A model generated the notes under the pieces. It saw only the letters and a program-made list of their open reading frames with translations, made no database searches and was not told the DNA's origin. From positions 320,001-384,000 of the forward strand of contig OZ219858.1 in the NCBI GenBank assembly GCA_964291395.2: a stretch of 64,000 nt of DNA, read 5' to 3'. The stretch is from Alphaproteobacteria bacterium. GTDB lineage: Bacteria > Pseudomonadota > Alphaproteobacteria > UBA2966. Positions 173-25,591 of this stretch are shown here, in pieces. Position numbers and translations under genes: made by a program. Numbering within the stretch: position 1 is the stretch's first letter; the number at the start of each line of letters is the position of its first letter.

Positions 173-178
173 GGGAAG

Positions 179-6489: not shown

Positions 6490-6720
6490 GTGGCAAGGCT
6501 GAACGCCGCGAAGGTCTACGAGGCGAACCTGCCGCGGCGATGTGCTGGCCGTCCTGAAGCCGATACGGACCGTGAGGCCGGGAACGGCAGGACGCGTCCG
6601 GCAGCGCATTCGCACAATTCTCCGATGGTGCGGGGCACACGACTACTGCGCCGGCAACGCGGCGGGGGAAGCGCTGAACGGCGCCCTTCCGCCCATGCCG
6701 CGCCGGTCGGCCGGTCGGCC
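6490..6720 (+). pseudogene. P4-like tyrosine integrase remnant (internally deleted)
   Basis: GTG-ARLNAAKV start fused to central-domain fragment DVLAVLKPIRTVRPGTAGRVRQRIRTILRWCGAHDYCAGNAAGEALNGALP; no catalytic domain. Confidence 0.7.
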
Positions 6721-6725
6721 GCAAA

Positions 6726-6760
6726 GGCGAGACTAAGCGAGACTAGCCGAGACTAGGCGA
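6726..6760. repeat. 10-bp tandem repeat NNCGAGACTA x3.5
   Basis: GGCGAGACTA AGCGAGACTA GCCGAGACTA GGCGA. Confidence 0.9.
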
Positions 6761-6849
6761 ACAAAAGCACCTGCAGGGTCCGGCCGGAGCCTCGGCGGTG
6801 AAGCGGGGCGCCGCCCTCAGGACCGGGCCGTGACGCGGACGTCCGGACC

Positions 6850-7385
6850 GGAATCCTCGGGCAGTATGTCCGCCGCGATGCTTTCGGCGACGCGCCGCCG
6901 CCTCGCGCACGGAATGCCGCGCGAGGTGGGCATAACGAGCCGTGGTCCGGGCCTGGGTGTGGCCGAGGAGCTTGTCGATCATGGGGTTGTTGAAAAGTCC
7001 GGCAGCCGTGATTCTCTGTCCCCATATCTTGTGTTCGTTTCTGGGACGCTACGAGATGTTGGGACGCAAGGCTCGCGACCAGTTGGAACTGTTCGTTACC
7101 GGGTCGCTCGATCAACTGGTGCCCGAGGATCATGTTCTGGCCCGCGTGGATCGTGTGCTCGACCTTGGGTGGTTGCGCGAGGAAGTGGCGGATTGCTACT
7201 GCGGGGATAATGGCCGTCCGGGTGTCGATCCGGAGATGGCGGCCAACCCCGACGGAAAGATCGCCGTGCCTCCCGAGACTGACGCACCTGAGCCCGGCCG
7301 CCCCGGGACTGGACCACGTAGACCTTGCGGCCGCTGGCGTGGACGCGCACGCCAAAGCCGCCGCCCTCCCCGTGCAGGGCGCATG
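6850..7385 (-). pseudogene. Second tyrosine integrase remnant (Arm-binding N-terminus and catalytic C-terminus), interrupted by IS
   Basis: N-terminal GFGVRVHASGRKVYVVQSRG / CVSLGRHGDLS (7250-7385) and C-terminal MIDKLLGHTQARTTARYAHLARHSVREAAAR (H...Y catalytic motif, ~6890-6982); middle missing. Confidence 0.8.
6983..7242 (+). mobile_element. IS1182/IS5-like insertion sequence, left end and truncated transposase
   Basis: End-like GGGTTGTTGAAAAGTC; ATG 7056 MLGRKARDQLELFVTGSLDQLVPEDHVLARVDRVLDLGWLREEVADCYCGDNGRPGVDPE (DUF772-type N-terminus), then abrupt truncation. Confidence 0.75.
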
Positions 7386-7505
7386 GCTCGGGCAGACCCG
7401 GCTGGATGGCAGGGAGCCCGGTGCATAAGAACAACGCGACATCCCTTCAGGCACTGCCACTTGCATGGCAACTCGGGTAAACTTATCCCGAATGTGAGGT
7501 CGGAC

Positions 7506-9248
7506 ATGCCAAACGCTTTGCTGGTCTACCCGGAACACCCTCCCACCTACTGGGGGGCCACCTATGCGCTGGAGATGTCGGGGATCAAAGCCGCCTACCC
7601 GCCTCTTGGGTTGCTAACCATCGCCGCGATGTTTCCCCCAGGCTATGAGCTCCGCCTGGTGGACATGAACGTGAATGCTTTGCATGACGCCGATCTCGAG
7701 TGGGCGGATTTTGTGTTCACGTCCACGATGATCACTCAGCAACTGTCGCTTCGTGCCGTGATCGAGCGGTGCAACCGCGAAGGGGTTCCGGTGGTAGCCG
7801 GTGGGCCTCATGCGACCATGTTTCACGAAGACATCGTAGGCGTGGACCACTTTGTGCTGGACGAGGTCGAAGAAACTTTCGGGGAATTCCTTGAGGATCT
7901 GCAAAGCGGAACGGCCAAGAGCATTTATCGGGAACCGCGAAAGCCGGATGTGACCCGGACGCCGGTTCCGCGCTTCGACCTCATCGATATGAAGAACTAC
8001 GCCAATATGAACGTGCAGTTCTCTCGGGGATGTCCTTTCGATTGTGAATTTTGCGACATCATCAAACTCTATGGTCGCGTGCCGCGTACCAAGTCGCCGG
8101 AACAGGTCGTGGAAGAGTTGGACTCCCTTTATCGGTTGGGTTGGCGCGGCCGCGTTTTCCTGGTTGACGACAACTTCATCGGGAACAAGCGAGATGCCAT
8201 GAATCTGCTGCCGAAGGTAGCCGAGTGGCAAAGGACAAGAGGACATCCGTTCACTCTGAGCACGGAGGCAAGCGCGAATCTTGCGCGAATGGACCAATTG
8301 ATGGATGCCATGATCGAGGCCGGTTTCGATACCGTGTTTGTCGGTATCGAATCTCCGAACCCCAGAACCCTGCTCAAGACCAAGAAGCCGCAAAATACCA
8401 GCAAGCACCAAGAGAACTACCTTTTCAATGCCGTTCGAAAAATCCAGCAGCATGGGATGCAAGTCCAAGGCGGGTTCATCTTGGGTCTGGATGGTGATGA
8501 CGAGGGCGTGTTCGACGCCCAGATCGAGTTCATTCAGGCGACCGGTATTCCCGTGGCCCCCATCTACCTGTTGACCGCCTTGAAGGGCACGGACATGTAC
8601 GAGCGCATGAAGTCGGAGAACCGGCTTCTGGAGGCGCCAATCGGAACCAATGCCATGCCTCTCAACTTCAAGCCGGAAATGGAATACAGGACATTGATCG
8701 AGGGATACGTGCGAGTGATAGGCACGCTCTACGATCCGACCCTGGAGAACTACTTCAGGCGTTGTCTGGCTCTGTTTAGGCATCTCAAACCTGTCCCACA
8801 CCTTCGAAAGCCTAAGGGCAGGAACGAGATCTACGCAGCCTTCATGGGTGTTCGCCGCTGTCTCTCAGACAGGCAAGTCCCTGCCTATTCGAAGTTCATT
8901 GGCAAGGTCTCCAAGGACTATCCACGCATGCTTCCCGAAGCAATCTATTTGGCTGCCATGGGTCATCACTTCGAGAGAATCAGCCGCCAGCAGATTGCAA
9001 TCCATGAGTTCCTCGGCTTCCTGAGAGGCGAGCTGGAGATGTTCCAGGAGGCGGCTTCGGGTGCCGCTTCGGAGGCCGAGGAAATCAGGAGCCGAAGAGA
9101 GACGTCGTTTGAACGAGCCCAGCAACGCTACGAGTCCATACCCGATGAGTTTCGATACCAGGGAGATGGGCTGGGCGATGCGCTAGAGTCCTTCCGACAT
9201 TCGGTGGATACACGGACGAATGAATTCGCGTGTGCTGAGATGGCATGA
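7506..9248 (+). CDS. B12-binding-domain radical SAM protein (class B methyltransferase-like, DUF4070-type C-terminus; SwfC-like candidate)
   Basis: GAGGT RBS and ATG 7506 (MPNALLVYPEHPPTYWG); YPPLGLLTIAA, VVAGGPHAT cobalamin domain; SRGCPFDCEFC CxxxCxxC; VDDNFIGN. Confidence 0.9.
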   Translation: MPNALLVYPEHPPTYWGATYALEMSGIKAAYPPLGLLTIAAMFPPGYELRLVDMNVNALHDADLEWADFVFTSTMITQQLSLRAVIERCNREGVPVVAGGPHATMFHEDIVGVDHFVLDEVEETFGEFLEDLQSGTAKSIYREPRKPDVTRTPVPRFDLIDMKNYANMNVQFSRGCPFDCEFCDIIKLYGRVPRTKSPEQVVEELDSLYRLGWRGRVFLVDDNFIGNKRDAMNLLPKVAEWQRTRGHPFTLSTEASANLARMDQLMDAMIEAGFDTVFVGIESPNPRTLLKTKKPQNTSKHQENYLFNAVRKIQQHGMQVQGGFILGLDGDDEGVFDAQIEFIQATGIPVAPIYLLTALKGTDMYERMKSENRLLEAPIGTNAMPLNFKPEMEYRTLIEGYVRVIGTLYDPTLENYFRRCLALFRHLKPVPHLRKPKGRNEIYAAFMGVRRCLSDRQVPAYSKFIGKVSKDYPRMLPEAIYLAAMGHHFERISRQQIAIHEFLGFLRGELEMFQEAASGAASEAEEIRSRRETSFERAQQRYESIPDEFRYQGDGLGDALESFRHSVDTRTNEFACAEMA

Positions 9249-9624
9249 TGAACATCGTCGAACCCACGTGTCGGCGAAGACGGGAGCATGGAAAATGGGC
9301 GTCGGGTCGTCATGATCGGGTTCCGGAGACCCGCCCATCCTCAAGGTGAATGTCTTCAATTGCGAACCATACGCGTCCCGCCAACCAGCCAGCTTGGCTG
9401 AAAATCCGTCAATGCACCAACATCCCAACTGGACCGGTCGACGGGGGCTGCCCATCGTGCGATATTTCTGAATTATTGGAGCAATATGGATTGAGGTGTT
9501 CGAAGGCAATACTGCGCCGATCAGGGAGGTATACGAATCGTGTTTCGCAGACCGATGCTCAAGGCAGCCCATCAGCACCGGAGGCCCGACGGGCTGATTT
9601 GAAGAACTTGACCCGTAAGGAACG

Positions 9625-10740
9625 ATGACACAGGATTCGACGAACCCTACCAGACCTGCCGAAAAGGCACGATGGCGCGGCTTCACGCAGTTAGCCCTGC
9701 TTCTTCTCGCAATCGCGGTTGCGCTGTACTTCGCCAGGGCTCCGAGCAGGGTGGAACGGGGACCGGTATCCGGTGCCGCACAGGCCAAACTGGTCCCGAG
9801 CATCGTTAAACCGGTCGCGACCGACCATGTCCTGACAGTCAATCTGACAGGAACCGTCAACCTCGCAAGGAAGACGACCGTAGTTTCCGAAGTCGTCGGA
9901 CGCGTGAACTGGGTTTCGCCCGCCTTCAGCAATGGGGGGACTATCCCGGCGAACGAGACGTTCATCAAAATCGATCCGGCTGAATACAGGCTTGAAGTCG
10001 AAGCGGCCAAGATGGCGGTCAAGGAAGCCGAGGCGCACGTCCAGATCGAAAAGGACCGCGCAGGCGAGGTCGCGAGAGCACAAGCACAGTTGGGAAAGGT
10101 AAGGGCGGCTCTGGCACTGGCAGAGCTGCGGCTCGAGCGGACCGAGATTTCGCTTCCCTTCGCATGCCGGGTTATCTCTTCGGATTTGGAGGTAGGTGAT
10201 CTGGTGGGGCCGGCCGACGCGGTCGGACGGATGTCGGTATTGGGTGTTGTCTATCGTCGGGACGCGCTGCAGGTCCGCGTGCCGATCGGTGCCGAAGACT
10301 TGGCGGATTTGGCCCCGGCGGTGGGTCGTTCGGCTCGGATCCATACCGATGGCGGCACATTTAGCGCTGAGGTGATGCGCGTATCGTCGGCGTTCTCGCC
10401 CAAGACGCGCCTTGCGGCGGTATTTCTCAAGTTTACGGAAGACGATTCGTCGGACAGGCCGCTCCCCCTTCCGGGCGAGTTCGCACACGTGGAGATTTCG
10501 GGACCCGAGCGCGACAATGTGTTTGTGCTACCCAAATCGTCTGCCTGGGAGAGCGACAAGGTCTGGGTGGTCAGAAACGGCGTGTTGAATTCCGCAACAG
10601 TCAGGACCATAGCCCGGACGGACGCCGGATGGGTCGTCGAGGCGTTCGACGCGGGCGAAGGCGTGGTCGTGGGCCCGCTGTCGGGTGCCCGGGAAGGCCA
10701 GGAGGTTGATGCCCGTCAAGCTACGACATCGTCTCAATAG
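9625..10740 (+). CDS. RND efflux membrane-fusion (periplasmic adaptor) protein
   Basis: N-terminal TM, SEVVGRV lipoyl half, helical hairpin, LERTEISLPF, VGDLV. Confidence 0.88.
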   Translation: MTQDSTNPTRPAEKARWRGFTQLALLLLAIAVALYFARAPSRVERGPVSGAAQAKLVPSIVKPVATDHVLTVNLTGTVNLARKTTVVSEVVGRVNWVSPAFSNGGTIPANETFIKIDPAEYRLEVEAAKMAVKEAEAHVQIEKDRAGEVARAQAQLGKVRAALALAELRLERTEISLPFACRVISSDLEVGDLVGPADAVGRMSVLGVVYRRDALQVRVPIGAEDLADLAPAVGRSARIHTDGGTFSAEVMRVSSAFSPKTRLAAVFLKFTEDDSSDRPLPLPGEFAHVEISGPERDNVFVLPKSSAWESDKVWVVRNGVLNSATVRTIARTDAGWVVEAFDAGEGVVVGPLSGAREGQEVDARQATTSSQ

Positions 10741-10784
10741 ACCTGTCTGATCAGTAACCCATCAAACGCCGAGCGCGAGCTATC

Positions 10785-13700
10785 TTGAAAAACGGACTGA
10801 TCGCATATTTTGTCGGGAATCCTGTCGCTGCCAGGCTCTTGATGATTTTCCTGATCCTCGGGGGTGTCATTGCCGGTTTACAACTCCGGTTCCAGAACGC
10901 CCCGGATCTGGACCTGCGTACGGTCACGATCACGCTGGCGTCACCGGGTTCCTCTCCCAGGGAGGTCGAGGAAGACATCAACCGCCGCATCGAGGAAAGC
11001 GTGGTCGGGCTCGCAGGAGTGGCCCGCGTCGTGGGCATAGCATCGGAAGGTTTCGCTCGAATTGAGGTGGAGCTCGAATCTTTTGCAAACGCGGACGCCG
11101 TCCTGGCTGATATCAAGAATGCGGTGGACGGCATTGAGAATTTTCCGCCCGCGAGCGCGGAGGCGCCGAGGGTGGAGATCAAGAAACTGTCGACCGAAGT
11201 ACTGACACTCTCCGTTTCGTCGCCGACACTGTCCGAGAACAGGCTCCGTCTGACGGCCGAGGACATTCGCGACGAGTTATTGGCCCTGCCTTCTGTGTCC
11301 TTGGTTCGCTTAAGGGGCACACGCGATAGAGAAATCGCGATCGAGATGAGCGAAGAGGAGTTGCGCCGCAATAATCTGTCCCTTTCCGAAGTGGCGAGGA
11401 AGGTGCGGCGGGCGTCGGTCAACCTGACATTTGGTGAATTGCGCACGGATGCAGGTGGAGTGGTCCTTCAGGTTATCGGGAAAAAAACGACCGGCAAGGA
11501 ATTTGAAAGCATTCCCCTGACGACTCGAGTCGACGGCACAATCATAAGGCTCGGCGACGTGGCAGAAATTCGCGACGGACTTGCCGACGAGCAAATAGTA
11601 TCCGAGGTCGACGGCAAGCCAACGCTGTTCGTTCGCGTCGAAGCGACCCAAGAACAATCGATCGTAGACGTCGCCGATAACGTCACGGAATGGCTTGCCA
11701 ACTACAAGCCTCCGGCCGGCGTCGAGGTCGATATCTGGGGTGACAGGGTCAAACCGATTTTCGACAGGTTCTCGGAAATATTGAGTAATGCCCTTATTGG
11801 AATCGTCCTTGTATTCGTTTGCCTCGTTCTTGTCTTCGATCTTCGGGTCGCGACCTGGATCACAGTGGGAATCCCCTTGTCGTTTGTCGCATCGTTGATG
11901 TTCTTTGAGATCGCGGGCCTGACCCTCAATATGGGAACGCTGTTTGCGTTCTTCTTGCTGATCGGCATCGTGGTCGACGACGCAGTTGTGGTAGGAGAGA
12001 GCATTGCGGCCGAAAGAGACCAGGGCAAGACCGCTCGGGAAGCGGCGATCTCTGGAGCCAAGATTGTTGTGGGGCCGATCACCGTAGGCGTACTCACAAC
12101 CGTTCTGGCATTTGTGCCACTTCTATTCGTAACGGCAGGAAATTACCAGATCGTACAGGTATTTCCCTACGTCGCATTTTTGGTCCTCTTTATTTCGCTC
12201 GCCGAAGCGTTCTGCATTTTGCCGTCGCATCTATCGCACGAAAAGGGATGGAGTCTTTCACCGCTACGCGATGTTCAGGAACGTGTGCGCGGTCGGCTCG
12301 ACGAATTGCGGGACGCCATCGTGGTCCCGATAGTCTCCTGGTCTGTCCGGCATGTCTTCTTGACATTTGCTTTCGGGATAGTTTTCGTGCTTGCCGCGAT
12401 TTGGTTGGTACGTTCAGAAACCGTCCGGGTGATCGTCTTTGACAGCGCCGCCAATCTCGGCAACACGATTCAGGCCGATCTGGAGTTGCCGGTCGGTGCT
12501 CCTTTCGATGCGACCGTAGCCGCGGCGCAGCGTTTCGTCCGAGCGGCCCGCGGCATTAACGAACAACTTGAAGGAGAGTCGATCAAGTCGGTTAGCCTCA
12601 TTGTGGGCAACCTTGGCGGCATCGCTGCGTCTCGGACGGGTCAAGACGACTCGATTCGGAGTCATCTCGCAACGGTGAGGCTGCAGCTCCATGACCGACC
12701 GCTTCGCGAGGCGTCGCCCGAAGTCATCGAGAGGGTATGGCGTCAAAATGTCGGCAACATGTCAAACTTGGAAAACGTCTCCATCCAGACCACCCGGGTC
12801 CGGTTCCAGCCCCCGGTCGCATACGCGCTCGTTCACGACGATCTTGAGGTCCTCCAGAAGGCTGCCGAAGAGTTGAGGTCGTTCATGGGCACGGTGTCCG
12901 GTCTCTACGGGCTATCGGACAGCCTGTCGCTCGGCAAGCGGTACTTCGAAATTCAGCTGACCCCGGCGGGGCAGGCGGCCGGGCTGACGCCGGCGATGAT
13001 CGGCAAGCAGCTGCGGGCCAACCTGCACGGTCTGGAAGTCCAGCGAATCCAACGCGGCCGCGACGAAATAAGAGTTGTGGTCCGGTATCCGGCGGAACGG
13101 CGGCGAAGCCTGCAAGAACTCGCCAGAGAGCGGATTGTCGGCCGTAACGGCAAAGAAATTCCGCTGTCCACCGTGGCACGTATCACTGAAAAACGGGAAC
13201 TCGCCACACTGACGCGCATCGATGGAAAGCCTGCGGCCTTGGTCAATGCATTTGCCGATTTCAACGAGACCACTCCGATACGGGCAAGGCGCGCAATCGC
13301 GCAGGAGTTCCTTCCCGACTTGCTCGCAAAATACCCTGGCCTCTCGATTTCCCGGGACGCCGGAGCCCGCGAGGAAAGGGCTATGCTCGAAACGTTAGGA
13401 GTGCTGGTGCCGATCGTCCTAGTCATCATGTACGGGCTGATGGCGTCATTCCTGCGGAGCTATTGGAAGCCGCTCGTAGCCGTGGTCGGCGTCCCGGTCG
13501 CCTTCGCCGGGGCTGTGATCGGCCATTGGGTGCTAGGTTGGCATCTGACCGCCATATCTCTGTTCGGCATGATTGGGGTCGCCGGGGTCATCGTCAATGA
13601 CGCGTTGGTTTTGCTCGATCGCTACAACACAATCCGCCGCGAGAACAAATCGATCCCGGCTATCGCGGCTGCGGCCGGGGCCACGCGAGACCGCTTTCGC

Positions 13701-13889
13701 GCGGTATTCCTGACCTCTCTGACAACCGTGTTGGGCCTCTCGCCGTTGCTCTACGAGCGAAGCGACGAGCTTTTGTTCCTCGTGCCGTTCGTGGTCAGCA
13801 TGCTGGGTGGCCTCCTTGCCGCGGGTATCTTCACACTGTTCGTCCTGCCGGCTCTGGTGATGTTCGTCGAGGGCCGCAGGGAAGCCTAG
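10785..13889 (+). CDS. AcrB/AcrD/AcrF-family RND transporter
   Basis: 1034 aa; PGSSPREVEEDI, GIVVDDAVVVGE (TM4 DD), GVIVNDALVL, RFRAVFLTSLTT. Confidence 0.95.
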   Translation: MKNGLIAYFVGNPVAARLLMIFLILGGVIAGLQLRFQNAPDLDLRTVTITLASPGSSPREVEEDINRRIEESVVGLAGVARVVGIASEGFARIEVELESFANADAVLADIKNAVDGIENFPPASAEAPRVEIKKLSTEVLTLSVSSPTLSENRLRLTAEDIRDELLALPSVSLVRLRGTRDREIAIEMSEEELRRNNLSLSEVARKVRRASVNLTFGELRTDAGGVVLQVIGKKTTGKEFESIPLTTRVDGTIIRLGDVAEIRDGLADEQIVSEVDGKPTLFVRVEATQEQSIVDVADNVTEWLANYKPPAGVEVDIWGDRVKPIFDRFSEILSNALIGIVLVFVCLVLVFDLRVATWITVGIPLSFVASLMFFEIAGLTLNMGTLFAFFLLIGIVVDDAVVVGESIAAERDQGKTAREAAISGAKIVVGPITVGVLTTVLAFVPLLFVTAGNYQIVQVFPYVAFLVLFISLAEAFCILPSHLSHEKGWSLSPLRDVQERVRGRLDELRDAIVVPIVSWSVRHVFLTFAFGIVFVLAAIWLVRSETVRVIVFDSAANLGNTIQADLELPVGAPFDATVAAAQRFVRAARGINEQLEGESIKSVSLIVGNLGGIAASRTGQDDSIRSHLATVRLQLHDRPLREASPEVIERVWRQNVGNMSNLENVSIQTTRVRFQPPVAYALVHDDLEVLQKAAEELRSFMGTVSGLYGLSDSLSLGKRYFEIQLTPAGQAAGLTPAMIGKQLRANLHGLEVQRIQRGRDEIRVVVRYPAERRRSLQELARERIVGRNGKEIPLSTVARITEKRELATLTRIDGKPAALVNAFADFNETTPIRARRAIAQEFLPDLLAKYPGLSISRDAGAREERAMLETLGVLVPIVLVIMYGLMASFLRSYWKPLVAVVGVPVAFAGAVIGHWVLGWHLTAISLFGMIGVAGVIVNDALVLLDRYNTIRRENKSIPAIAAAAGATRDRFRAVFLTSLTTVLGLSPLLYERSDELLFLVPFVVSMLGGLLAAGIFTLFVLPALVMFVEGRREA

Positions 13890-14177
13890 GAGATCGAAGC
13901 CTCGGGAGACTGAGGGACCCTCGCTGATGCCTTCGCTTGAGTCCGGCACCAGTCGCGCTGATGTAATTGTGTCACTGCGTTACGATGATGAAGCCACGCA
14001 CCTCAGCGGCGGCGGGATCGTGTGCCAGCGCGTCGGCGTCGAAGAGCACGCTCGGGACGACCGGATCGATGGCCGCGCGCGCTCCCTTCCATGGATGAGG
14101 TTCGTGCGAACCCTTCCCTTTGCATTGACCGTCAGCACCTCGCTATGCAGGCGCCGCATCAGTGGGCGAGTTCGAAC

Positions 14178-14942
14178 ATGAACGTCAACGGGCAAACGGC
14201 GATCGTTACCGGGGGCGCATCCGGACTGGGCGAAGCGACCGCGCAAGCGCTCGCGGCCGCTGGCGCCAGGGTGGGCATCCTCGACATGAACGAGGATCTG
14301 GCACGAAGGGTTGCGGCTGAGATCGGCGGTGCCGCCGCGGTGTGCGACGTGGTCGACTCCGCGAGCCACGAGGCCGCCGTCGCAGAAGTGCGCGAGCAAT
14401 TGGGACCGGCACGCATATTGGTCGCCTGCGCGGGCATCGCTCCCAGCGCCAAGCTGATAGGACGCGACGGCAAAGCAAGTCCGCTCGGAACAGTCACCCG
14501 CGCGATCGGCGTCAACCTGATCGGCACTATCAACTCGTGCCGGCTGGCTGCCGCCGACATGGCCGCTCTGGAGCCGATGAACGACAACGAGCGCGGCTGC
14601 ATCGTAACCACGGCCTCGGTTGCCGCCTTCGAGGGGCAGAGCGGACAGCTCGACTACGCCGCGTCGAAGGGCGGCGTCGCGGCGATGACGATCCCGCTGG
14701 CGCGCGAGCTTGCCAGCGAGGGCATCCGCGTGAACTGCATCGCGCCCGGTCTGATGGACACGCCGATGATGGGCGGCTTGTCAGGGCCGGCGAAGCAATT
14801 TCTGCTCGAAACGACGGTTTATCCCAAGCGCCTCGGAGGCGCGGACGAGTACGCCGCGCTGGTCGTCCATATCGCGGAGAACACCTTCATGAACGGCTCA
14901 GTGATCCGGTTCGATGGCGCGCTCCGAATGGGACCGAAATAG
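14178..14942 (+). CDS. SDR, 3-hydroxyacyl-CoA dehydrogenase type 2 (HSD17B10-like)
   Basis: AIVTGGASGLG, VACAGI, ERGCIVTTASVAAFEGQ, YAASKGG, IRVNCIAPG. Confidence 0.9.
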   Translation: MNVNGQTAIVTGGASGLGEATAQALAAAGARVGILDMNEDLARRVAAEIGGAAAVCDVVDSASHEAAVAEVREQLGPARILVACAGIAPSAKLIGRDGKASPLGTVTRAIGVNLIGTINSCRLAAADMAALEPMNDNERGCIVTTASVAAFEGQSGQLDYAASKGGVAAMTIPLARELASEGIRVNCIAPGLMDTPMMGGLSGPAKQFLLETTVYPKRLGGADEYAALVVHIAENTFMNGSVIRFDGALRMGPK

Positions 14943-15235
14943 CGCACGCCATGGTAAGGAGGCGATTAGCTCGTCGAGCGAGCGAGAGAACCCGCGACCA
15001 TTGGGGCCCGCGATGTGCCGCTCGCTGTCAATTGCCAAGAAGTACATATGCTGCTTCCGTTATACGTCCATGGACACAACCTGCGCACTTCACGACGACC
15101 TCGTGGACTGCGAACAATGACCGCACTAGAATGGATATGGAGACCTAATTTCCTTCATGTTTTGGCAAATTTCAGGCGATTGGCCGACGATCGTCGCCGA
15201 GCGGTTGTCGCCTTGGCGATACACCGAATAACGGC

Positions 15236-18200
15236 GTGGCTCTAGCAAGTACGGACAACGATGTTGCCATCGTCGGGTACAGCCATCGCATGCCCGGTGG
15301 CATACAGTCGGATTCCGATTTCTGGACCCTGCTCAGCAGGCGGGACATCGTCCAAGAGCCGATCACCGACCGCTACGGAAAAGGCCACTTGCCCATCGGG
15401 GAGTTTTCAGGCCCGGGGCGTCTTGCCAGTCCCTATGAGGGACTGTTTCGCGACGATGAAGAACTGCTTTTCGACCGCACGTTCTTCGGCATGTCCCACA
15501 ACGAACTGAGGCAGACCGAACCGCAGGTGAGGATGCTGCTGAATTGCGCGTGGGAAGCCATCGAACACGTTGGATGGGACCTTCATTCGTTGCGCAACAG
15601 CCCCACCGGGGTCTTCATAGGTTCGCAGGTTCCGGCCGTGTCCAACTGGCGGCCGCAGCATGGCGTCACGGAGAATTCCGTCTCCGGCATCAGCCTCGCC
15701 ATGCTGGCCAACCGGGTCTCCTACCACTTCAACCTCATGGGGTCGTCCGCAACCTACTGCACGGCCTGTTCCGCCGGCCTGAGCGCCCTGCACGCGGCGA
15801 TGAACGCGCTGGCGTGCGGCGATTGCGACCAGGCTCTGGTCGGCGCCGTCACCTACCTGGGCAGCGCCAGGATGAGCAGCGGCTTCAACCTCATGGGAGT
15901 CATCAGCCCGGAGGGCAAGTGCCATTCCTTCGACGCCGAAGCCGACGGCTACATGCGCTCCGAAGGATCGTTCGTCTTTGCCATCAAACCCCTGGCGGCG
16001 GCCGAGCGGGACGGGGACCCGATCTACGCCGTGATCGAGGCGACCGCGGTCAACGCGGCAGGGACGGCCGACGGCACGCCCGGTCTCGCGCCGGGGCGTT
16101 ACATCAGCGCGCCAACTCGTCATTCCCAAGTCCAGCTGATGCGCGAGGCCTCGACGCGCGCCGGCCGCACCGCTCTCGACTTCGACTACATCGAGGCGCA
16201 CGCGACCGGAACCGCAGTCGGCGATCCCATCGAGGGCAACGCCATCGCCGAGGCCTTTGGCGGCTTCGAGCGCGAAATCCCGCTGCGGGTCTCCAGCGTG
16301 AAGAGCAACGTCGGGCACATGGAAGCCGCCGCCTTCCACTGCGCCCTGCTCAAGGTCGTTCTGATGATGCAACGGCGCACCTTCGCGCCGACATCGAACA
16401 ACTTTCAGGTGCCCAATCCGGAGATCGACTTCGAGAGCTGCCCCATGCGGGTGCAGACGGACTGCGAGTCGTTCCCCGACCGTCCCGTGGTCGTCGGGAT
16501 CAACTCGTTCGGCTTCGGCGGCGCCAACGGGCATTGCGTGGTGCGCGAGTACCGGCCGGCGCTGTCAAGGCTCTGGTCGGTGCCGCTGGCGCCGGAGGCG
16601 GGCTACATGGTCCCGCTCTCGGCGCGAACGCCCAAGGCGCTCACCGAGAGCGCGCGCCGTCTGCGCCGCCTGCTCGATGAGCAGCCGATGGACCTCTACG
16701 CGCTCGCCGGCAACCTCAGCCGCCGCCGCACCCATTTCGCCGCACGGACGGCGTTCGCGGCGCACAGCTTGCTCGATCTGACCGAGGCGCTGGATGCCTT
16801 CGTGGAAGACGGCGCTGCCATCGCCACGGCGGAGGAGGGCGAGCGGCGGCTGGTCATGGTGTTCGCCGGGCAGGGGACGCAGTGGGCCGGTTGCGGGCGC
16901 GATCTCTACGAGGCCCATCCCGTCTTCCGCCGCGCCATCGACGCCATCGACGAGCACTGGCGCGCGCATGCTGAGACCTCGTTGCGCGAGGCCTGTTTCA
17001 CGGCTCCCCAGGAGGAGCTCGACGAGGTTCAACTCGCCCAACCCGCGATCTTCATGATCCAGTGCGCGCTGGTAGAACTGTTCAAGACCTGGGGCGTCTA
17101 TCCCGACTGCGTGGTGGGACACAGCTCCGGCGAGGTGGCCGCGGCGTACGCGTGCGGCGCGCTTTCGCTCGCCGACGCGACGCGCCTGGTCTACCACCGG
17201 GCTACCCTGCAGCAGCGCGTGGCCGGCTCCGGCCGCATGCTGGCGATCGGCCTCGACAAGACGGGTGTGGAGGAACTGCTGGACGGGCTGAACATCCCCT
17301 TCCGCCTAGACGGCGACCGGCCCGTTCAGGTCGAGATCGCCTGCGAGAACGCGCCGGCAAACACCGTCATCTGCGGTCGCGAAGACGATCTGCAGCCGGC
17401 GATGGAGGAGCTGGATCGGCGCAGCCTCCAGAACCGGCTGATCCCCGGCAACATCGCCTTTCACTCCCGGGCGATGGACGCCATCAGGGACGATGCGCTG
17501 GAGGCGCTCTCGTTCCTCGACGATCTCTCCTTCGACGCCGACGTGCAGTTCATCTCGTCTGTGACGGGTGCCGAGACGGAGCGGCTGGACAGCGCCTACT
17601 GGTGGTCCAACATCCGCCAGGCAGTCCGCTTCGCCGCAGCGATGGAGACCGTCAAGCGCGACCACCGGCCCGACGTGGCGCTGGAGCTCGCGCCTCACTC
17701 GGCCCTGCAACCCATCGTCGCGCAATGCATGGAAGACGTGGCATCGCCGCCCGTCTCCATTCCAACCCTGATGCGGGACACCGATACCTGCCTTGGCTTC
17801 CATGAGGCTTTGGGCAACCTCTTCAAGGCCGGCGTGTCGTCTGGACTTCGCTGCGCAGTACCCGCGTCCGGACCCCATCGTCCATCTGCTGCCGGGGCAT
17901 CCGAGGGACGAGCAGAAGACCGTCGACAACAGGCTGGACGACGAGTTTTTCCTGAAACAAGGCGACTACGCGCATGGTCCGCTGGTCGGCCACCGGATCG
18001 CGAGCGATCATCTCCTGTTCGAAGCACGGCTCTCCGAGGCGGCCTTTCCCTGGCTCGCGGAACACCGTGTCCATCACGCGTCGATCATGCCGGCCGCCGG
18101 CTACATTGAGCTGATACTGCAGGCCCTGGGCGGCATTCCGGTCCATTTCGACGTACTCGAGTTCCTGCAGCCGTGTCCCATCCCGAGGACGCCTGTCAGG

Positions 18201-21200
18201 CTGCAAACAGCCCTTTATCCGGTTCCCAATTCCGACGGTGAGTTCACCTTCCAGATTTCGACGCTGCCCTACGAGGTCGATCCGAAGAGCGAGCTGCACT
18301 GCCGCGGGAGGGTGCGCTTGATCAGCGTGCGACCGGAGCTGGACGCACCGGAAACGCTGTCGGACTTGGAGACGTCGGCTTACGAGCCTCTTCAATATGC
18401 CGCCGACGATGAAATCTACGAGCGCTTCGAAGTGGTTCTCGGGGAAACCTTCCAGTACGGCCCCCACTTCAGGAACATTCGGAAGCTCAGGCGTGAGCGA
18501 GAGACCGGCCGCCTCCTGCTGGATGTCGGCGTCGACGAGGCGCTGTGGGCGGGTGCAAGAGAAGAGGGATACGTCTCCTTTCCGCCTCTTCTCGACGGCG
18601 GGCTGCAGTCGTTTCTCTACGACTTGATGCTTGGCGCTGATCGTTTTGCCATTCCTCTGCGGGCGGAAAACGTGACGTTCTTGGGCGCGCCGACGGTGCC
18701 GCGCCTCGTTTGCCAACTGACCTATCCCGGCGGCAAGCGGTACGAAGTCGATGACAAGGGTCAATACAACGTTCCCAACGGCGAGTGGGTTTCCGGCCGG
18801 TTGAACTTCTACGACGAGGCGACCGGCGCGCTCACCCTTCACGTCGAGAAATACATCTCCTTCATCTCGTATCCCAGGCGGGTTGACCTGCCGCACAGCA
18901 AGCACCGTATCGCCTGGCAACCGAAGTTCGTCGCCGACGGCCGCGAGATCGCGGACCGGCTGCCCGGGGGCGAGATCGAGCCGTCGGCCCTGCTTGCCGC
19001 CCTGGAACGGGGGGAGGACGGCGACGGGCGAGTCTGCCATGCGCTGGAGTTCGCGGGCTCCAGGGAGCCGGAGCAGACCGTGCTTCAGAGCTGCCTCGAC
19101 CACCTCTCACGGGAGGAGACGCAGAGCGAGTTCTGGCTCGTCGCCGACGATGAGGAGGGCGCGCGGACATGCTTCGAGGCCTTCCACGCGCAGGACGCCG
19201 CGCTGCGCTTCGACTGCCTCGATCCGGCTGCGCGGCAGCCCTCCGCGCTCGATACGGGCCTGCTGCGCTCCGGTGCGGCGGAAGTCCTGTTCCTCCACCG
19301 CGACGAGGATGCGTTCATGCCCGACGACTGGCGGTTCTGGCAGGAGGTGGCGGTCGCGGGCGGATTGGCGCTGGTTTCCCACGCGGACGGCGCGGACATA
19401 GAGCCCGGCGCGGGCTGGACCACGCTTCGTGCCGGACGGCGAGCGACTCTGCTGCAGGCGCCGCCGCAGCGGGCGGGCGAAAGGGATGAGGCGGTGCTGC
19501 CGGCTCCGCGCTGGGTGATGGGGGCGCCCGATAGCCTGGCGAGGGACTGGACATCCCTACTCGACAATCCTGCGGTCTACCCGATCCCCTTCGAGGGCCC
19601 CGCGTCAAGCGATCCCTTCGAGGTCGAGACGTGGCCGCAGGCGGCGGACGTGCAGGCGATCGACGTTTTCTGCGACTGGGATCCGGAGGATGCGACGGGC
19701 GAGAGGGCGGTCTCGCAATTCGTCGCCCTGATTCAGTCGCTGGTGCCCTACAGGATCGACCAGGCCAGCTGCCCATGCCGCGTCACCGTGGCGACCCGCA
19801 AGGCGGTGTTCGAGCCTGAGGATGCACGCGGCAGCGCGCTCTGGGGTGCGGTGCGCACCATGGCGATGGAGATCGGCGAAGAGGCCCAGCTCGACTTCCG
19901 CCTCGTGGACCTGGGAGCCGCCGACGACCTGGAGACGCTGGCGTGGATCGCGCGGCACGACCTGCGCGAGCGCGAGCTTGCGGTGCGCGAGGGTCGCCTG
20001 TGGGTGCCGCGCGTCGTAAGCAATCGCGATCAGTACCCGAGCATCCCCGCCGGAGAGGACCCTCCCTACCGGCTCTTCCTGGACAATGCGGGGCAGATCG
20101 GCGGCCTCAGGATGAAGACCTACGATCCTCCGCCGCTGGCCCCGCACGCCGTGGAGATCGACGTCGTCGCGTCCGCACTCAACTTCCGCGACGTCATGGT
20201 GACGCTCGGGCTGCTGCCGTCACTGGCCTACGAGCGCTCCGCACTCGGCCGCGAGGTCGGCATGGAAGCGAGCGGCGTAGTCCGCCGCGCCGGCACGGCC
20301 GTGGAAGGGCTCGAGCCCGGCGATGAGGTGGTCTTCGTCGACGGCGGCTGTATCGCCAATCGCACTGTGGTGGGCCAGCACCGCGTGTTCCTTAAGCCCG
20401 CGGGCCTCACCATGGAAGAGGCCGCGTCATCGCTCTCGGTCTACGTCACCGCCTACTACTCGCTGATTCACCTGGCCCGGCTGCGCAAGGGCCAGCGCGT
20501 CCTGATTCACTCGGCCATGGGCGGCATCGGACAGGCCGCCATCGCGCTCGCCAACAACGTAGGCGCCGAGATTTATGCAACCGCGGGGAGCGAGAACAAA
20601 CGCGACCAGTTGCTCGCGCTCGGCGTCCGGGCGGCCTTCGATTCCCACAGCGAGGACTGGTACGACGGGTTGATGAAGGCGACCGGCGGCCAGGGTGTCG
20701 ATGTCGTGCTGAACTCCCTCGCGGGCCGCCACGTTCCGCTCTGCTTGCAGGCGCTCAGGGCGGGCGGCTGGCATTGCGAAATCGGCAAGGTCGACATCTA
20801 CGCCGACAGCGCCCTCGGCCTCCGCGTCTTCCGCAAGAACCTGCGCTTCGCGGCCATCGACCTCGACCGCCTGATGGTGGACGACCCGCTGCTCTCCCGC
20901 GAGCTCTCCCAGGCCTGCCTCGACCTGCTCGATCGTGGTGTGGTGCCGCCGTTGCCGGTCACCGCTTTCTCCTACGGCGACTACGCGAAGGCGCTCCGCC
21001 TGATGACCTCCGGCAAGCACCAAGGAAAACTGGTGCTGAAGGCGCCGCCGGCGTCCGCCGATCCGGACTTTCCCATCGACGACCGGCGGCCGTTGCTGGA
21101 CCCCGAGGGGACCTATCTCGTGACCGGCGGCCTCGGCGGCTTCGGTCCGCGGCTCCTGCCCTACCTGGTCACAGCCGGCGCCCGCCACCTGACCCTGATG

Positions 21201-22298
21201 GACCGCGATCCCGAGCGCCGCCGCAGCGAGAACTGGCTGCGCCAATCCACGACTCTTGCGGACATAGGGCAGGGGGTCGAGATCGACATCGTTTCCGGCG
21301 ACGTGGCGGAGGAGGCCGACGTGCGCCGCTGCGTCGCCAACGTGAGGAAGCCGCTCAAGGGCGTGTTCCATCTCGCCGGCGCGCTGGACGACTGTCTGCT
21401 GGCGGACATGACGGCGGAGTCCATCGCCCGCGTGTTCGCGCCGAAGGCCCACGGCGCGCTCTATCTCCACCGTGCTACCGAAGGCCTCGCGCTCGATCAC
21501 TTCGTCATGGTGTCGTCGCTCTCGTCGGCGTTCGGCAATCCGGGGCAGATCAACTACGGCGCCGCCAACGCCTACATGGACGGCCTCGCCGCCTGCCGCC
21601 GCCGGCAAGGACTGCCGGCTTTGTCCTACAACCTGGCGGCGGTCTCCGATGCGGGCATGGCCGCGCGCAACCTCGGCCTGCTGCGATTGATGAAAGCCGC
21701 GGGCATACCCCCGGTGAGCAGCTATTGCGCCATCGCCAACCTCGACTATGCGCTCCGCACGATGGCCGATGGCGACCATCTGATCACCGCACTCTTCAAG
21801 CGCGTGCTCTGGAGCGTCGATTCCGCCGACTACATGCGGTCCGGCCGCCTGATGAGCAACCAGGATGCGTTCAAGATGGACTCCGACGAGCAACTGACGG
21901 TCGATGGCGTCATGGCGCAGATCGCCGCCAAGGTCGCCGAGCTCTGCGGCCACGACGAGGGCGGTCTGGAGGAACCCCTCTCCAGCTTCGGCCTCAACTC
22001 CATCTCCGTCGCCGAACTGGGGGCGTTCATCCAGAGCGAGTTCGGCTTCCAGGCGAGCGCGCTCGAGCTGATGACCACGGCCTCGTGCCAGTCGCTGGCG
22101 CACGCCATCGTCTTCGGCACGACGAGCGACGAGGAGGCGGAAGCCGAGACGGACGGTGAAGACATCGACGATGCGCCCCTCGCCGCGCAGCGCCTTGTTC
22201 GCCGCAAGCCCTCGGTGTTCGCCAGCCCGCCCGAAGACCACTTCCCGCCGGCGCCCTGTTCCGGAAAAGGCGCCGCGAGTGCCCTGACCGCCGAGTAG
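15236..22298 (+). CDS. Single-module highly reducing type I PKS/FAS (KS-AT-DH-psiMT-ER-KR-ACP; SwfA-like), split by a +1 frameshift at ~17840
   Basis: KS TACSAG/EAHATGT/KSNVGH; AT GHSSG, IAFHS; DH LAEHRVHHASIMP and DGGLQ; ER LIHSAMGGIGQ; KR TGGLGGFG, LDD, NYGAAN; ACP FGLNSIS. ORFs 15236-18109 and 17793-22298 join at GGC GTG TCG [T] CTG GAC TTC. Confidence 0.92.
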
Positions 22299-22360
22299 CG
22301 CGATCCGGCGACAGGGGAGCGGGCTCCGCATCGGCGCAGTGAGTATCAAGGCAAGGCAGC

Positions 22361-24856
22361 ATGGCCGACGCATGTGTCGCTGACCGGACGGTGCCGCCGC
22401 TCATCGGCCTCCTGCCGCCGCAATGCCGGAGAGACGTGGACGAGCTGCGCCGCGTCATTCACGCGACGGTCTCGCGAGAGACGCCGGCCGAAGCCGTGAC
22501 ACCAACAGACTTTCGAGAGGTTTTGCTGACCGGGGCAACCGGCTTCGTCGGACGCTTCTTCCTGCGCGAGCTTCTGTGGCAGAACGAGCAGCTGATCGTG
22601 CACTGCCTGGTCCGCGCCGAGAGCGCCGAACACGGGTTCGAGCGCTTGCGCGACGCCCTGGAGCGGGCCGAAATCTGGGAGGAGGAGTGGACGTCGCGCC
22701 TGCGCGTGGTGCCCGGCGACGTCTTCCAAGAGCATTTCGGACTGAGCGAGTCAGTGTTCGACGGGCTCTGCCAGCGGATCGACGCGGTCTATCACCTGGC
22801 TGCCAACGTGGGCCTCGTCCAGTCCTATGCCGATATACGCGACGAGAACGTGCTGGGCCTTCGCTCCGTGCTCGAGCTCTGCCTGCGGACCCGACTCAAG
22901 CATCTGTTTTACGGATCCACCATGGCTGTTTTCCCCGAGTATTTTTGTGACTTTTCGCTGGAATACAGACAGAGCCGCATCGACGATCAGATGTCCCCCG
23001 ACCTCGCCGACATGAAGAAGGCCTTTCCGCTCGGCGCCATCGGGTATCCGTGGAGCAAGCTGGTGGCCGAGCAAGGCGTGTTGTTCGCGCAGGCGGCCGG
23101 TGTGCCGGTCGCGATCTTTCGCCTGCCGCAGATGGGGCTCTCCAGCACGGGGTACACGCAGGCAAACAATTTTCCGGCCCGCCTGTTCGCTGCGGCGATG
23201 CAACTGGGAAAGGCACCGGAAGGCTTTTCCATTCAACGGAATGCCGAGCCGGTCGATACCGTCAGCGAAATCTGCACGGCAATCTCACTCAACTCCGACC
23301 GCCGCTTCACCGTCTATCACTGCTGCGATCCGAATCCGCCCTACGACGATCTCGAAGTGGCGGACTTCGGCTTCTACTGGGAAGTAGTCCCCTACCAATC
23401 CTTCAGGAGGTCGTGCCAGGCTCTCGGCGACAGCTCTCCGCTGCGCGGGCAGTGGGTCCTGGTCGACCACTTCGCGCCCTATTGGTTCGGCGAGGACAAG
23501 GCGGGACACGCGCCGCCGATCAGCGATCGCGCCATCCGGGAGGATTGCCCGCACCCGATCAAGTGGCCGGCACTGCTGATCCGCCACGCGCGCTCCTACG
23601 ACTGGGTCAGGCGTCATCGGGAGAGATGGCCCTATCCGGTCCCCCAAGGCCGTCTGGACTTCGACGGACTCATCGCTCAGGCCGAGAGATACGCCGAGCG
23701 CATGGGCGTGCCCTTCGAGCCAACCTGCCCCTCGTGGATGCGCGCCGGCCTCAAGCAACTCGTGGAGGCGCTGAAATCGCCGGAGTCCGGGCTGCGGGAA
23801 ACCCGGGTCAGCCACGTCATCTATGGGTTGACCCGTGCGCTGCGCAACAATGCAAAACTCGCCCGCGAGGCGCGGCAGCACCCAGAGATCGAGCGGGAGG
23901 AGATCGAGCGGCCGGTCTTCATCGTCGGCATCAACCGTACCGGCACGACATTTCTGCATCGTCTGTTGTCGCGCGATCCCCAGTTCTGGGCACTGCGGCG
24001 CTACGAATTGACGGAGCCGGTGCTGTCCTCTGGCAAATACGCCACCGTCGCAGGCACGGCCGAGGATCCCCGCCGGGCCTACGCGGAAGAGCTACTAGGC
24101 GCGACCAATGTCGTCGATACGCTCTCCGGGCTCCACCGCACCGATATCGACGAGCCAGAGGAGGACTTGTGGATCCTCTGGCTTACGTTCTCGACCTGGA
24201 TATTCGCGACGGCGTACCACGTACCGGCCTATGGTCGTTGGCTCGCAGAAGCCGAGCCACGCAATGCCTACGCGCATCACCGGCGCGTCATGCAGCACTT
24301 CACCTGGCAGCGGCGGCAGCGGGAGCCGCAGAGCCAGCGGCACTGGCTGCTCAAGATGCCTTTTCATCTCATGGAATTGGAAGTGCTGCTGGAGACCTAT
24401 CCGGATGCCGTCTTCATCCAGACCCATCGCGAGCCCGTCGAGTTCATGGGCTCGTGGAACAGTATAGTGGAGCGGATACGAGGCTTTTCCACAGAGCCGA
24501 GGCCGCCGCACGAGGCCGGCGCCGAGCAGCTGGCCTTCATGAGCGGCATGTTGAACGGCGCGATGCGGTTTCGAGCCTCCAATCCCACGCTCGAAGAACG
24601 CTGGGTCGACGTGCGCTACGCCGATCTGGTCGATGACCCGATGGCCGTCGTGAACGACATCTACGCACGCCTCGGCTGGCCCCTTGAACCGCTCGCCGCC
24701 CACGCCATGCAGGGGTGGCTCACGCTTCAAGAGGAGCAGCGCCGGCACGAACCCCGGCACGAGTACAGGCTGGAGGACTATGGCCTCACACCGGCGGCCG
24801 TGAACGAGGCGTTCGCGCCGTATCGTGAGTACGTTGCGACCCGCGGTATCGCGTAA
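22361..24856 (+). CDS. Thioester reductase (R domain) - sulfotransferase fusion (SwfB-like)
   Basis: N-half VLLTGATGFVG, YHLAANV, GYPWSKLVAE (YxxxK); C-half PVFIVGINRTGTTFLHRLL (5'-PSB loop), WLLKMPFH, THREP..FMGS. Confidence 0.92.
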   Translation: MADACVADRTVPPLIGLLPPQCRRDVDELRRVIHATVSRETPAEAVTPTDFREVLLTGATGFVGRFFLRELLWQNEQLIVHCLVRAESAEHGFERLRDALERAEIWEEEWTSRLRVVPGDVFQEHFGLSESVFDGLCQRIDAVYHLAANVGLVQSYADIRDENVLGLRSVLELCLRTRLKHLFYGSTMAVFPEYFCDFSLEYRQSRIDDQMSPDLADMKKAFPLGAIGYPWSKLVAEQGVLFAQAAGVPVAIFRLPQMGLSSTGYTQANNFPARLFAAAMQLGKAPEGFSIQRNAEPVDTVSEICTAISLNSDRRFTVYHCCDPNPPYDDLEVADFGFYWEVVPYQSFRRSCQALGDSSPLRGQWVLVDHFAPYWFGEDKAGHAPPISDRAIREDCPHPIKWPALLIRHARSYDWVRRHRERWPYPVPQGRLDFDGLIAQAERYAERMGVPFEPTCPSWMRAGLKQLVEALKSPESGLRETRVSHVIYGLTRALRNNAKLAREARQHPEIEREEIERPVFIVGINRTGTTFLHRLLSRDPQFWALRRYELTEPVLSSGKYATVAGTAEDPRRAYAEELLGATNVVDTLSGLHRTDIDEPEEDLWILWLTFSTWIFATAYHVPAYGRWLAEAEPRNAYAHHRRVMQHFTWQRRQREPQSQRHWLLKMPFHLMELEVLLETYPDAVFIQTHREPVEFMGSWNSIVERIRGFSTEPRPPHEAGAEQLAFMSGMLNGAMRFRASNPTLEERWVDVRYADLVDDPMAVVNDIYARLGWPLEPLAAHAMQGWLTLQEEQRRHEPRHEYRLEDYGLTPAAVNEAFAPYREYVATRGIA

Positions 24857-25048
24857 CATTGCCGACGCCACGGGTATCGTATGTCTTCTTGCGGGACTGA
24901 GCGCCCGGTTCTCCGAGGCGCCTCTCGAAATTCGGATAGGCCCGTGAGGGTCCGACTCAACGCTCCGGCCGATCAACATTAGAGGTGGGAAGCGTTCATC
25001 CCATTTCCTCCTCGTTCCATAACCCAACGATGGACCAATCCACTGAAA

Positions 25049-25445
25049 GTGAATCAGTCGAGGTACTACTTTGGGGCGGCGAGTCGGGAATTCCAGCGGC
25101 GTGTGAATCTGATGCTCGGCGAGATGCCGGTGCGCGCGGTCGTGTACTCCCATTCCCACATCGATCATTTTGGCGGCGTGCACGGCGTGATCAGCGAGGC
25201 TGACGTGACCTCCGGAGACGTGCAGGTCTTTGCGCCCAAAGGCTTCATGCAAGCGGTTGCCTCGGACAACGTGTCCGCGCGAACGGCCATTTCGCGACGA
25301 GCGACAATGCAGTACGGGCGGGCAGCCAATATGCTTGCGGATGTATTCGAACAACTCGGCTACCAATACGAAAGCGCGAGCTTGCGTAACGTGTTCCTGA
25401 CCGCGGCGCAGGAATTGCGCAATTGCAATGAGTTAAGAGAGAGCA
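25049..25445 (+). pseudogene. Alkyl sulfatase (SdsA1/YjcS-type MBL fold) remnant, internally deleted
   Basis: VRAVVYSHSHIDHFGGVHG (HxHxDH)...RRATMQYG fused directly to dimerisation-domain segment LADVFEQLGYQYESASLRNVFLTAAQELRN. Confidence 0.82.
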
Positions 25446-25468
25446 CGAATCCCACCTCTTCCGCCATT
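25446..25468 (+). repeat. attR-like copy of the tRNA-Ser 3' end
   Basis: 21/23 match to 6414-6436 including the TCCGCCA end. Confidence 0.8.
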
Positions 25469-25591
25469 TCGCTTCGTGCGAAGCTTTACGCACGGCGGCC
25501 TCCGATGCCCTAGCGAAGGACTCTCCCTTGACCGCCAACGCCGGATCGGCAATCTAATGGAGACTCCGTCTGAACTTCGGATCGATCTGAC

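Follow-up and report, generated by a model that had tools for sequence, protein, structure and literature searches.

Seven genes in the genome of an Alphaproteobacteria bacterium (UBA2966), all on the plus strand between 7506 and 25513, are by the features that we tested a cluster of the swf family, one of the two polyketide synthase (PKS) families that dominate sponge metagenomes. The stretch of DNA analysed, called the window here, comprises 64 kb of contig OZ219858.1 (positions 320,001-384,000, forward strand; assembly GCA_964291395.2), and all coordinates are those of the window. On balance we hold it to be probable, if only just, that this is an extended swf cluster on a decayed tRNA-Ser(CGA) island of about 19 kb, and that it would make and export an alkyl sulfate along the route proposed below. 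Gene content was read from Pfam profiles, family names were taken from NCBIfam with its own cut-offs, and tRNA genes were identified with ARAGORN. The genome bearing the window, a 4.16-Mb assembly in three contigs, is referred to as G000, and a relative from the same genus as G005.

The swf family was defined by three proteins (PMC3908369, here and below as given in its main text): SwfA, a synthase of 2361 amino acids (aa) with the domain order KS-AT-DH-ER-KR-ACP; SwfB, which joins a reductase (R) and a sulfotransferase (ST) domain in 832 aa; and SwfC, a B12-dependent radical S-adenosylmethionine (SAM) protein that is absent from one of the published clusters. The synthase in the window has the same domain order in one module, with about 2350 aa across two reading frames. 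SwfA is furthermore recognizable by signatures, for which we followed section 6 of that text: the second Q of DPQQR is replaced by I or V, HGTGT becomes HATGT, and the AT domain carries IAFH, GHSSGE and QCALVEL (PMC3908369). All five are present here, the first two as EPQVR and HATGT in the KS domain. Reading by eye, we found the Cys/His/His of the KS, the Ser in GHSSGE of the AT, His and Pro of the DH, the glycine loops of the ER and KR, the Tyr of the KR and the Ser of the ACP. The capsule synthases WcbR and RkpA were ruled out as a match, since they keep DPQQR and HGTGT (PMC3908369), and Pfam showed no capsule genes in the scanned flanks of the cluster. The locus thus shares with the clusters of 2013 the three genes with their domains and sizes, the KS and AT motifs and the sponge habitat, whereas its swfC lies not beside swfB but 13 kb upstream of it, ahead of the pump and the short-chain dehydrogenase/reductase (SDR); further differences are the carriage on a tRNA-Ser island and a frameshift in swfA. 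The preliminary description of this DNA had seen a co-directional cassette of B12 radical SAM protein, pump with adaptor, SDR, PKS, R-ST fusion and sulfatase remnant, which Pfam confirms, and had likened it to swf, a match that architecture and signatures bear out.

With respect to habitat, 15 of the 24 sequencing runs listed with the stretch are labelled as sponge metagenomes, and 20 of the 24 hold all or part of it (17 studies). Contigs of the island at 99% identity or more were found in runs X2, X3 and X17. X17 is a sponge metatranscriptome, in which contigs without a single difference cover 7094-7300, 7564-7930 and 12465-12659, though carried-over DNA may account for these. As to the product of swf, the preliminary description knew of none that was established, and the literature that we searched agrees. 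The authors of the 2013 study proposed an alkyl sulfate (PMC3908369). A follow-up in 2014 removed swf from the Poribacteria, and a paper from 2023, which reports swf in 'Thalassonella', still calls its product unknown. A brief remark in a paper from 2022 names methyl-branched fatty acids as the product of SwfA and cites the work of 2013 for this, the main text of which holds no such evidence.

The swfB gene begins 63 nt past the stop codon of the PKS. Its R domain carries the NAD(P)H-binding loop TGATGFVG and the motif YPWSK, and its ST domain carries RTGTT, which resembles the loop that binds 3′-phosphoadenosine-5′-phosphosulfate (PAPS), all as read by eye; the NCBIfam model Thioester-redct scores 211.2 bits against a cut-off of 213.35. 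We scored 840 R-ST homologs, and the 120 listed among them are 63-95% identical. The solved chain nearest to the R half is that of MxaA (4u7w, E 1.6e-38), an alcohol-forming terminal reductase, and a reductase chain of a type I PKS (8v1x) also matches. The ST half matches 2zq5 (E 3.2e-36) and 2z6v (E 2e-29), which we take to be mycobacterial Stf sulfotransferases; the PDB lists them as 'putative uncharacterized protein', and the literature search did not settle this. Of the 16 solved chains with a match to the R-ST at E≤0.001, none carries the name of a sulfotransferase from curacin or olefin synthases. Apart from SwfB, adjacent R and ST domains occur, according to the 2013 main text, in type I fatty acid synthases and PKSs of coccidia alone (PMC3908369). 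The thioester reductase of one of these, TgPKS2, turns octanoyl-CoA into octanol, i.e., it carries out a four-electron reduction from the acyl thioester to the primary alcohol (10.1101/2023.05.23.541938, available part). The coccidian enzymes are giant multimodular eukaryotic synthases, whereas SwfB is a free-standing bacterial R-ST with a mono-modular partner.

For comparison, we used 30 R-ST loci from species-representative genomes of Alphaproteobacteria, Arenicellales and other Gammaproteobacteria, and Rhodothermales. The flanks held for these loci are about 10 kb and reach about 2.9 kb upstream of the PKS, and whole-genome coordinates were used for the 28 genomes behind them; counts of linkage are lower bounds where assemblies are fragmented. 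SwfC of the window, which combines a B12 domain with a CxxxCxxC motif (CPFDCEFC), has orthologs of 61-82% identity in 17 of the 28 swf genomes, within 15 kb of the R-ST in 11 of them. Its nearest solved chain is 9ccb (E 2.2e-12), which is cited in the available part of a paper on the B12-dependent radical SAM glutamine C-methyltransferase MgmA. Our best guess is that SwfC would methylate an unactivated carbon.

The extension of the cluster consists of a pump of the resistance-nodulation-division (RND) type with its membrane fusion protein (MFP) and of the SDR. Searching the flanks with tblastn, we found the radical SAM gene at 10 of the 30 loci, the SDR at nine and the RND gene at five. On the scale of whole genomes, 20 of the 28 other swf genomes possess an RND ortholog of 55-77% identity; in nine of these (10 loci), it lies within 15 kb of the R-ST. 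One locus (L052) has the same order as the window, radical SAM-MFP-RND-PKS-R-ST; that of G005 (L053) reads PKS-R-ST-MFP-RND, and a divergent one with 48-62% identity (L055; R-ST 48%) reads MFP-RND-PKS-R-ST. The MFP is always paired with the RND ortholog in L052, L053, L055, L056 and L061. Among 21 relatives, an RND protein above 55% identity occurs only in G000 and G005, both of which carry swf, while the 19 non-carriers have RND paralogs of 30-33% or no match at E≤1e-100. As these relatives are not independent of each other, their co-occurrence is to be read as a pattern and not as a statistic. In the SDR, the Pfam domain begins at residue 58, such that the true start is probably later, and all FabG-type matches in NCBIfam stay below their cut-offs. 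Taken together, the comparison indicates that this specific MFP/RND pump and the SDR are recurrent accessory parts of swf and not special to this locus. The preliminary description had presented exporter and SDR as additions made here, which the recurrence contradicts; the co-occurrence that it proposed to check in a synteny survey was found for the RND gene and not for the sulfatase. It had also named as a ground for refutation that swf homologs never co-occur with radical SAM or RND genes; they do so with both. A text search of the 2013 main text for efflux, AcrB and short-chain gives no mention (PMC3908369).

Several genomes (G039, G023, G029 and G043) harbor at least two swf copies, which belong to different lineages. 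The R-ST identities are 76% and 64% in G039 and 73% and 48% in G023, and wherever linkage is visible, every copy comes with an MFP/RND pair of its own. The surroundings of radical SAM or RND orthologs that are not linked to swf (L056-L061) have no pattern in common and give no clue to a substrate; the neighbors there are AraC/DJ-1 regulators, an amidase, a PEP mutase, a hydantoinase, TPR proteins and a pyruvate carboxylase. Other neighbors of swf include a molybdopterin oxidoreductase, an AMP-binding enzyme, an ABC transporter and Memo/AMMECR1, each at 3-6 of 31 loci and mostly in related genomes; we did not take these for parts of the cluster.

A different picture emerged for the sulfatase remnant at the end of the cluster, which the preliminary description had taken for a matching degradative component. 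It scores 31.8 bits with Lactamase_B (profile positions 40-88 of 196) and 35.4 bits with Alkyl_sulf_dimr (99-138 of 139), and it has no match in NCBIfam. In tblastn searches across the compared loci, only the window's own copies were found at E≤1e-10 (30 loci), and in a second search at E≤10 the best foreign match reached E 0.02 over 29 residues. We thus rejected the sulfatase as a part of the swf cluster, since no other compared locus matches at E<0.01; the remnant is a one-off. It was likewise rejected as a working alkylsulfatase of the SdsA1 type, which has metallo-beta-lactamase, dimerization and SCP2-like domains of several hundred residues, against 154 aa here. In run X2, a contig passes from 25087 straight to 25447, with 359 nt left out and a short side of 26 nt, and would represent a variant without most of the remnant as far as the right-hand repeat.

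The preliminary description had further held that the cluster is carried on a tRNA-integrated island, and this stands. The 23 nt at 6414-6436 recur at 25446-25468 with two mismatches, and two matches were obtained in none of 100 shuffles of the window. As the right-hand repeat begins at 25446, the end of the cluster given in the preliminary description, 25445, coincides with this border of the island. The corresponding tRNA of G005 carries the same 23-mer with one mismatch, and G005 is syntenic with the window over 23-6435 and 25525-29067 at about 75-84% nucleotide identity. Between these flanks, it has a different insert of 12.6 kb with UvrD-like and DEAD-box helicases and a HEPN protein. The R-ST gene is present in only two of the 21 relatives, G000 and G005, and the copy of G005 is 64% identical and located at another site. 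Between tRNA and cluster lies the central domain of an integrase, which at 26.2 bits is just below the Pfam cut-off of 27; no intact integrase gene was found beside the tRNA with Pfam, only this fragment of 52 aa. The GC content within the island is uneven, at 0.56-0.60 over 7-14 kb (radical SAM, MFP, RND) versus 0.63-0.69 over 14-24 kb (SDR, PKS, R-ST), and the best matches differ by island half: the PKS is 92% identical to L002/L004, which are without a nearby pump, and the RND protein is 77% identical to that of G031. GC step and differing matches suggest a mosaic origin. Repeat, integrase scrap, the insert of G005 and uneven GC thus lead us to a mosaic, now immobile element at a tRNA-Ser hotspot, and by these sequence marks 6414-25468 is a decayed genomic island of about 19 kb at tRNA-Ser(CGA). 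The features of the island are collected in Table 1.

Table 1. Features of the tRNA-Ser(CGA) island and its swf cluster, in window coordinates.
Feature	Position	Strand	Evidence and remarks
tRNA-Ser (anticodon CGA)	6346-6434	+	ARAGORN; integration target, left end of the island
Left direct repeat (attL-like)	6414-6436	+	Exact match; tRNA 3′ end with 2 further nt
Integrase remnant, 52 aa	6551-6706	+	Pfam Phage_int_M, E 9.4e-6, 26.2 bits
Non-coding debris between integrase remnant and cluster	6707-7505		
SwfC-like protein (B12-binding, Radical_SAM, DUF4070), 580 aa	7506-9248	+	Pfam
MFP adaptor of the RND pump, 371 aa	9625-10740	+	Pfam HlyD_3; NCBIfam RND_mfp 109.8 bits (cut-off 94.9)
RND permease of the AcrB/MdtB type, 1034 aa	10785-13889	+	Pfam ACR_tran 422 bits, full length
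FabG-like SDR	14022-14942	+	Pfam adh_short 146 bits
SwfA-type PKS, first part (KS-AT)	15236-17838 (open reading frame (ORF) to 18109)	+	Pfam, translation
One extra base between AT and DH	17839	+	Alignment with 14 homologous loci
SwfA-type PKS, second part (DH-ER-KR-ACP; PP-binding)	17840-22298 (ORF from 17793)	+	Pfam, translation
SwfB-type R-ST fusion, 831 aa, intact	22361-24856	+	Pfam NAD_binding_4 180 bits and Sulfotransfer_3 131 bits
Alkylsulfatase remnant, metallo-beta-lactamase fold	25049-25445 (154-aa ORF to 25513)	+	Pfam fragments
Right direct repeat (attR-like)	25446-25468	+	21/23 identical to the 3′ end of the tRNA

Upstream of the cluster, the tRNA-Ser(cga) is accompanied by proA, proB and obg, and downstream follows a gene for a GlnE-type adenylyltransferase (25592-28627). 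G000 has two GlnE-like genes, this one and a second (C1:1286936-1289803) that is 52% identical, and relatives of the same genus also have at least two matches. The insert of G005 (L044:14986-20000 plus L045:1-7580) may be a defence island, and it contains at L045:5598-5695 a second, 76% identical copy of window positions 25525-25623. The debris at 6707-7505 has no full-length copy elsewhere in G000; a reading by eye as the C-terminus of a recombinase (minus strand) and the N-terminus of a transposase (plus strand) was discarded, since Pfam gave no match at E≤1. An element of about 35 nt with GAGACTA-like units at 6725-6762 has at least 20 matches on all three contigs of G000 (84-96% identity) and resembles a short repeat scattered over the genome. 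The spacer at 9249-9624 and a small ORF at 9350-9628 found no match in any compared locus. A second stretch of low GC content at 48000-53000 (0.59 versus about 0.65 in its surroundings) may likewise be a foreign insert.

The explanation that competes most strongly with a functional cluster is that the locus is a dead relic, i.e., that the extra base in swfA is real, the island is decaying and the strain makes no swf product. We give this an even chance. The two frames of the PKS overlap owing to the extra base (at about 17839); none of the 14 aligned homologous loci has this base, and it does not lie in a homopolymer. Full-length SwfA homologs (120 listed) are mostly single proteins of about 2,270-2,390 aa, with a few shorter ones from 1,685 aa. 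The fragmented integrase and the sulfatase remnant also speak of decay. In the sponge run X2, the island is covered by near-identical contigs (0-7 differences per 400-1800 nt), with a depth of 49.6 at 17841 and no contig that lacks a base; however, the depth is 0 at 17839, so contigs may break there, and a run with raw reads (X21) contributed six reads that all fall in the first bin and none over the site. Runs X3 and X17 (the latter an RNA library) provided one contig each without a base at 17839/17841, which would argue for an assembly error, but the X17 contig (349 nt over the frameshift) has 16 other differences and thus comes from a relative rather than from this strain. A scan for switches of frame based on GC content at third codon positions (GC3) returned 13-22 candidate sites in 4.16 Mb, which is a weak argument against an assembly riddled with indels; its thresholds were loosened to catch the case at 17839 after a stricter version had missed it, it had no control genome, and its sensitivity is unmeasured. 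An earlier scan for overlapping stop-to-stop frames was uninformative, as its 352 pairs were mostly ordinary neighbors. Against a relic, the remaining six cluster genes are full length and align end to end with their homologs. A split SwfA was also met in 2013 (POR_0547/0548), where a sequencing error was suspected (PMC3908369). All in all, we hold a real mutation and an assembly error to be about equally probable; if the mutation is real, this copy would make nothing.

Degraded swf copies also occur in other metagenome-assembled genomes. L003 has an insertion of about 1.5 kb in the PKS and L015 a frame break there, L027 shows several breaks in the PKS and an R-ST split by about 1.6 kb, and in L029 the N-terminus of the PKS is joined directly to the last third of the R-ST, with a TAG. 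Such copies fit the relic as well.

For an intact cluster of this kind, we propose the following route. The single, fully reducing SwfA module with its malonyl-type AT would iterate and build a mostly saturated long acyl chain on the ACP. The R half of the free-standing SwfB would take the chain from the ACP and reduce it with NAD(P)H, first to the aldehyde and then to the primary alcohol, and the FabG-like SDR may aid or take over the second of these steps, or else tailor an oxygen in mid-chain. The ST half would then transfer sulfate from PAPS to the primary alcohol, giving an alkyl sulfate. SwfC, where present, would act on an unactivated carbon in the chain and most likely methylate it, and the MFP/RND pump would remove the anionic lipid from the inner membrane to the outer membrane or the outside. 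The product is most likely an exported long-chain alkyl sulfate, possibly methylated. Sulfation as the end point is the simplest reading, because the ST is unlike the named curacin and olefin-synthase chains and a thioesterase (TE) is lacking. G000 has one match for APS kinase and two for phosphopantetheinyl transferase and, judging by these genes, can supply PAPS and holo-ACP.

A number of observations weigh against this proposal. Expression of swfABC in E. coli BAP1 gave no new compound in positive- or negative-ion liquid chromatography-mass spectrometry (PMC3908369), and the literature searched, which left subscription journals mostly outside, holds no characterized swf product. Whether an R domain reduces by two or by four electrons cannot be read from its sequence (10.1101/2023.05.23.541938, available part). 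The PKS of the window is frameshifted. No NCBIfam model recognizes SwfC above its cut-off, and SwfC is absent from 11 of the 28 swf genomes at E≤1e-100; with so many genomes lacking the gene, it must be considered dispensable. In the case of the pump, no RND ortholog above 55% identity was found in eight of the 28 swf genomes, many others have the ortholog at a distance from swf (G031 at 411 kb, G022 at 31 kb) or on a different contig of a fragmented assembly, and Pfam showed no gene for an outer-membrane channel in the island.

The missing channel bears on the destination of the lipid. In a second scenario, which differs from the export of an alkyl sulfate in this point only, the product is a structural lipid of the envelope that the MFP/RND proteins shuttle to the outer membrane. 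There are analogs for this, since HpnN moves hopanoids and MmpL8 the mycobacterial sulfolipid. Such a destination would fit the specific co-occurrence of the pump with swf as well as the 63-95% identity of SwfA and SwfB across classes (among the homologs listed), which suggests selection in the sponge niche. However, a pump of the AcrB/MdtB type with an adaptor usually stands for efflux across both membranes, and with swf in only two of 21 relatives the lipid would not be an essential part of the envelope. We thus regard an envelope lipid as unlikely, though worth keeping in mind. In this context, the mycobacterial locus for sulfolipid-1, with Pks2, PapA1/2, MmpL8 and Stf0, resembles the island in that an iterative type I PKS, a sulfotransferase and a lipid transporter of the RND superfamily are encoded together. 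It differs in that the sulfate sits on trehalose, PapA proteins transfer the acyl chains, MmpL works without an adaptor, and neither thioester reductase nor radical SAM protein is present; in the window, PapA is absent and the sulfate would sit on the reduced end of the polyketide.

It is decidedly improbable, in our estimation, that the sulfate is a leaving group, i.e., that the alkyl sulfate made by SwfB is an activated intermediate, from which elimination would give an alkene, or alkyl transfer an ether or amine lipid. The precedent of curacin was raised in 2013, and free alkyl sulfates are not known to be widespread in sponges (both according to the main text of PMC3908369). CurM and the olefin synthases likewise have a PAPS-dependent ST at the end of a type I synthase (PMC3908369), but there the ST sulfates a β-hydroxyl on the ACP and the TE then decarboxylates and eliminates the sulfate. 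In the window, no gene encodes a TE, the ST stands behind a reductase on a protein separate from the PKS, and CurM is not among the PDB matches; an ST-TE off-loading module of the CurM type is thereby ruled out. Furthermore, the cluster contains no additional conserved transferase, as the recurring neighbors at the 30 loci are only the radical SAM, SDR and MFP/RND genes besides scattered unrelated ones, and the conservation of a pump for an amphiphile is more in keeping with an end product. That pump and SDR serve multidrug efflux and housekeeping, respectively, and lie on the island by chance, as might be concluded from the GC step within the island and from RND and R-ST identities whose ranks disagree across genomes, so that the two have separate histories, is highly improbable given close RND linkage in varied orders and orientations over R-ST identities of 48-84%, the RND gene in both swf carriers and none of the 19 non-carriers among the relatives, and the recurrence of the SDR beside swf.

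Returning to the extended swf cluster, the locus does not constitute a system of a new kind, and this swf copy may be inactive. The swf family itself was already described; compared with the literature searched, what is new are the conserved pump and SDR, the carriage on a tRNA island and the frequent decay of swf copies. Pump and SDR as parts of swf point to a sulfated lipid that is exported or placed on the cell surface, and they offer a concrete rationale for trying the unsuccessful heterologous expression again with a fuller gene set. The tRNA-Ser hotspot illustrates one route by which swf spreads, with copies that often decay.

A wider proposal, which we advance tentatively and with some doubt, is that swfA/swfB and MFP/RND, optionally with SDR and SwfC, would form a self-contained module that moves horizontally on tRNA islands, and with which unrelated sponge symbionts of the Alpha- and Gammaproteobacteria and the Rhodothermales may make a sulfated, possibly methyl-branched fatty alcohol. 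This anionic surfactant would be located on or outside the cell and serve life in the sponge. If this is true, the failed expression of 2013 would be explained, because the expressed set lacked pump and SDR and E. coli provides no cobalamin, and the aliphatic sulfates of marine invertebrates, so far without an explanation, would have a source in bacteria.

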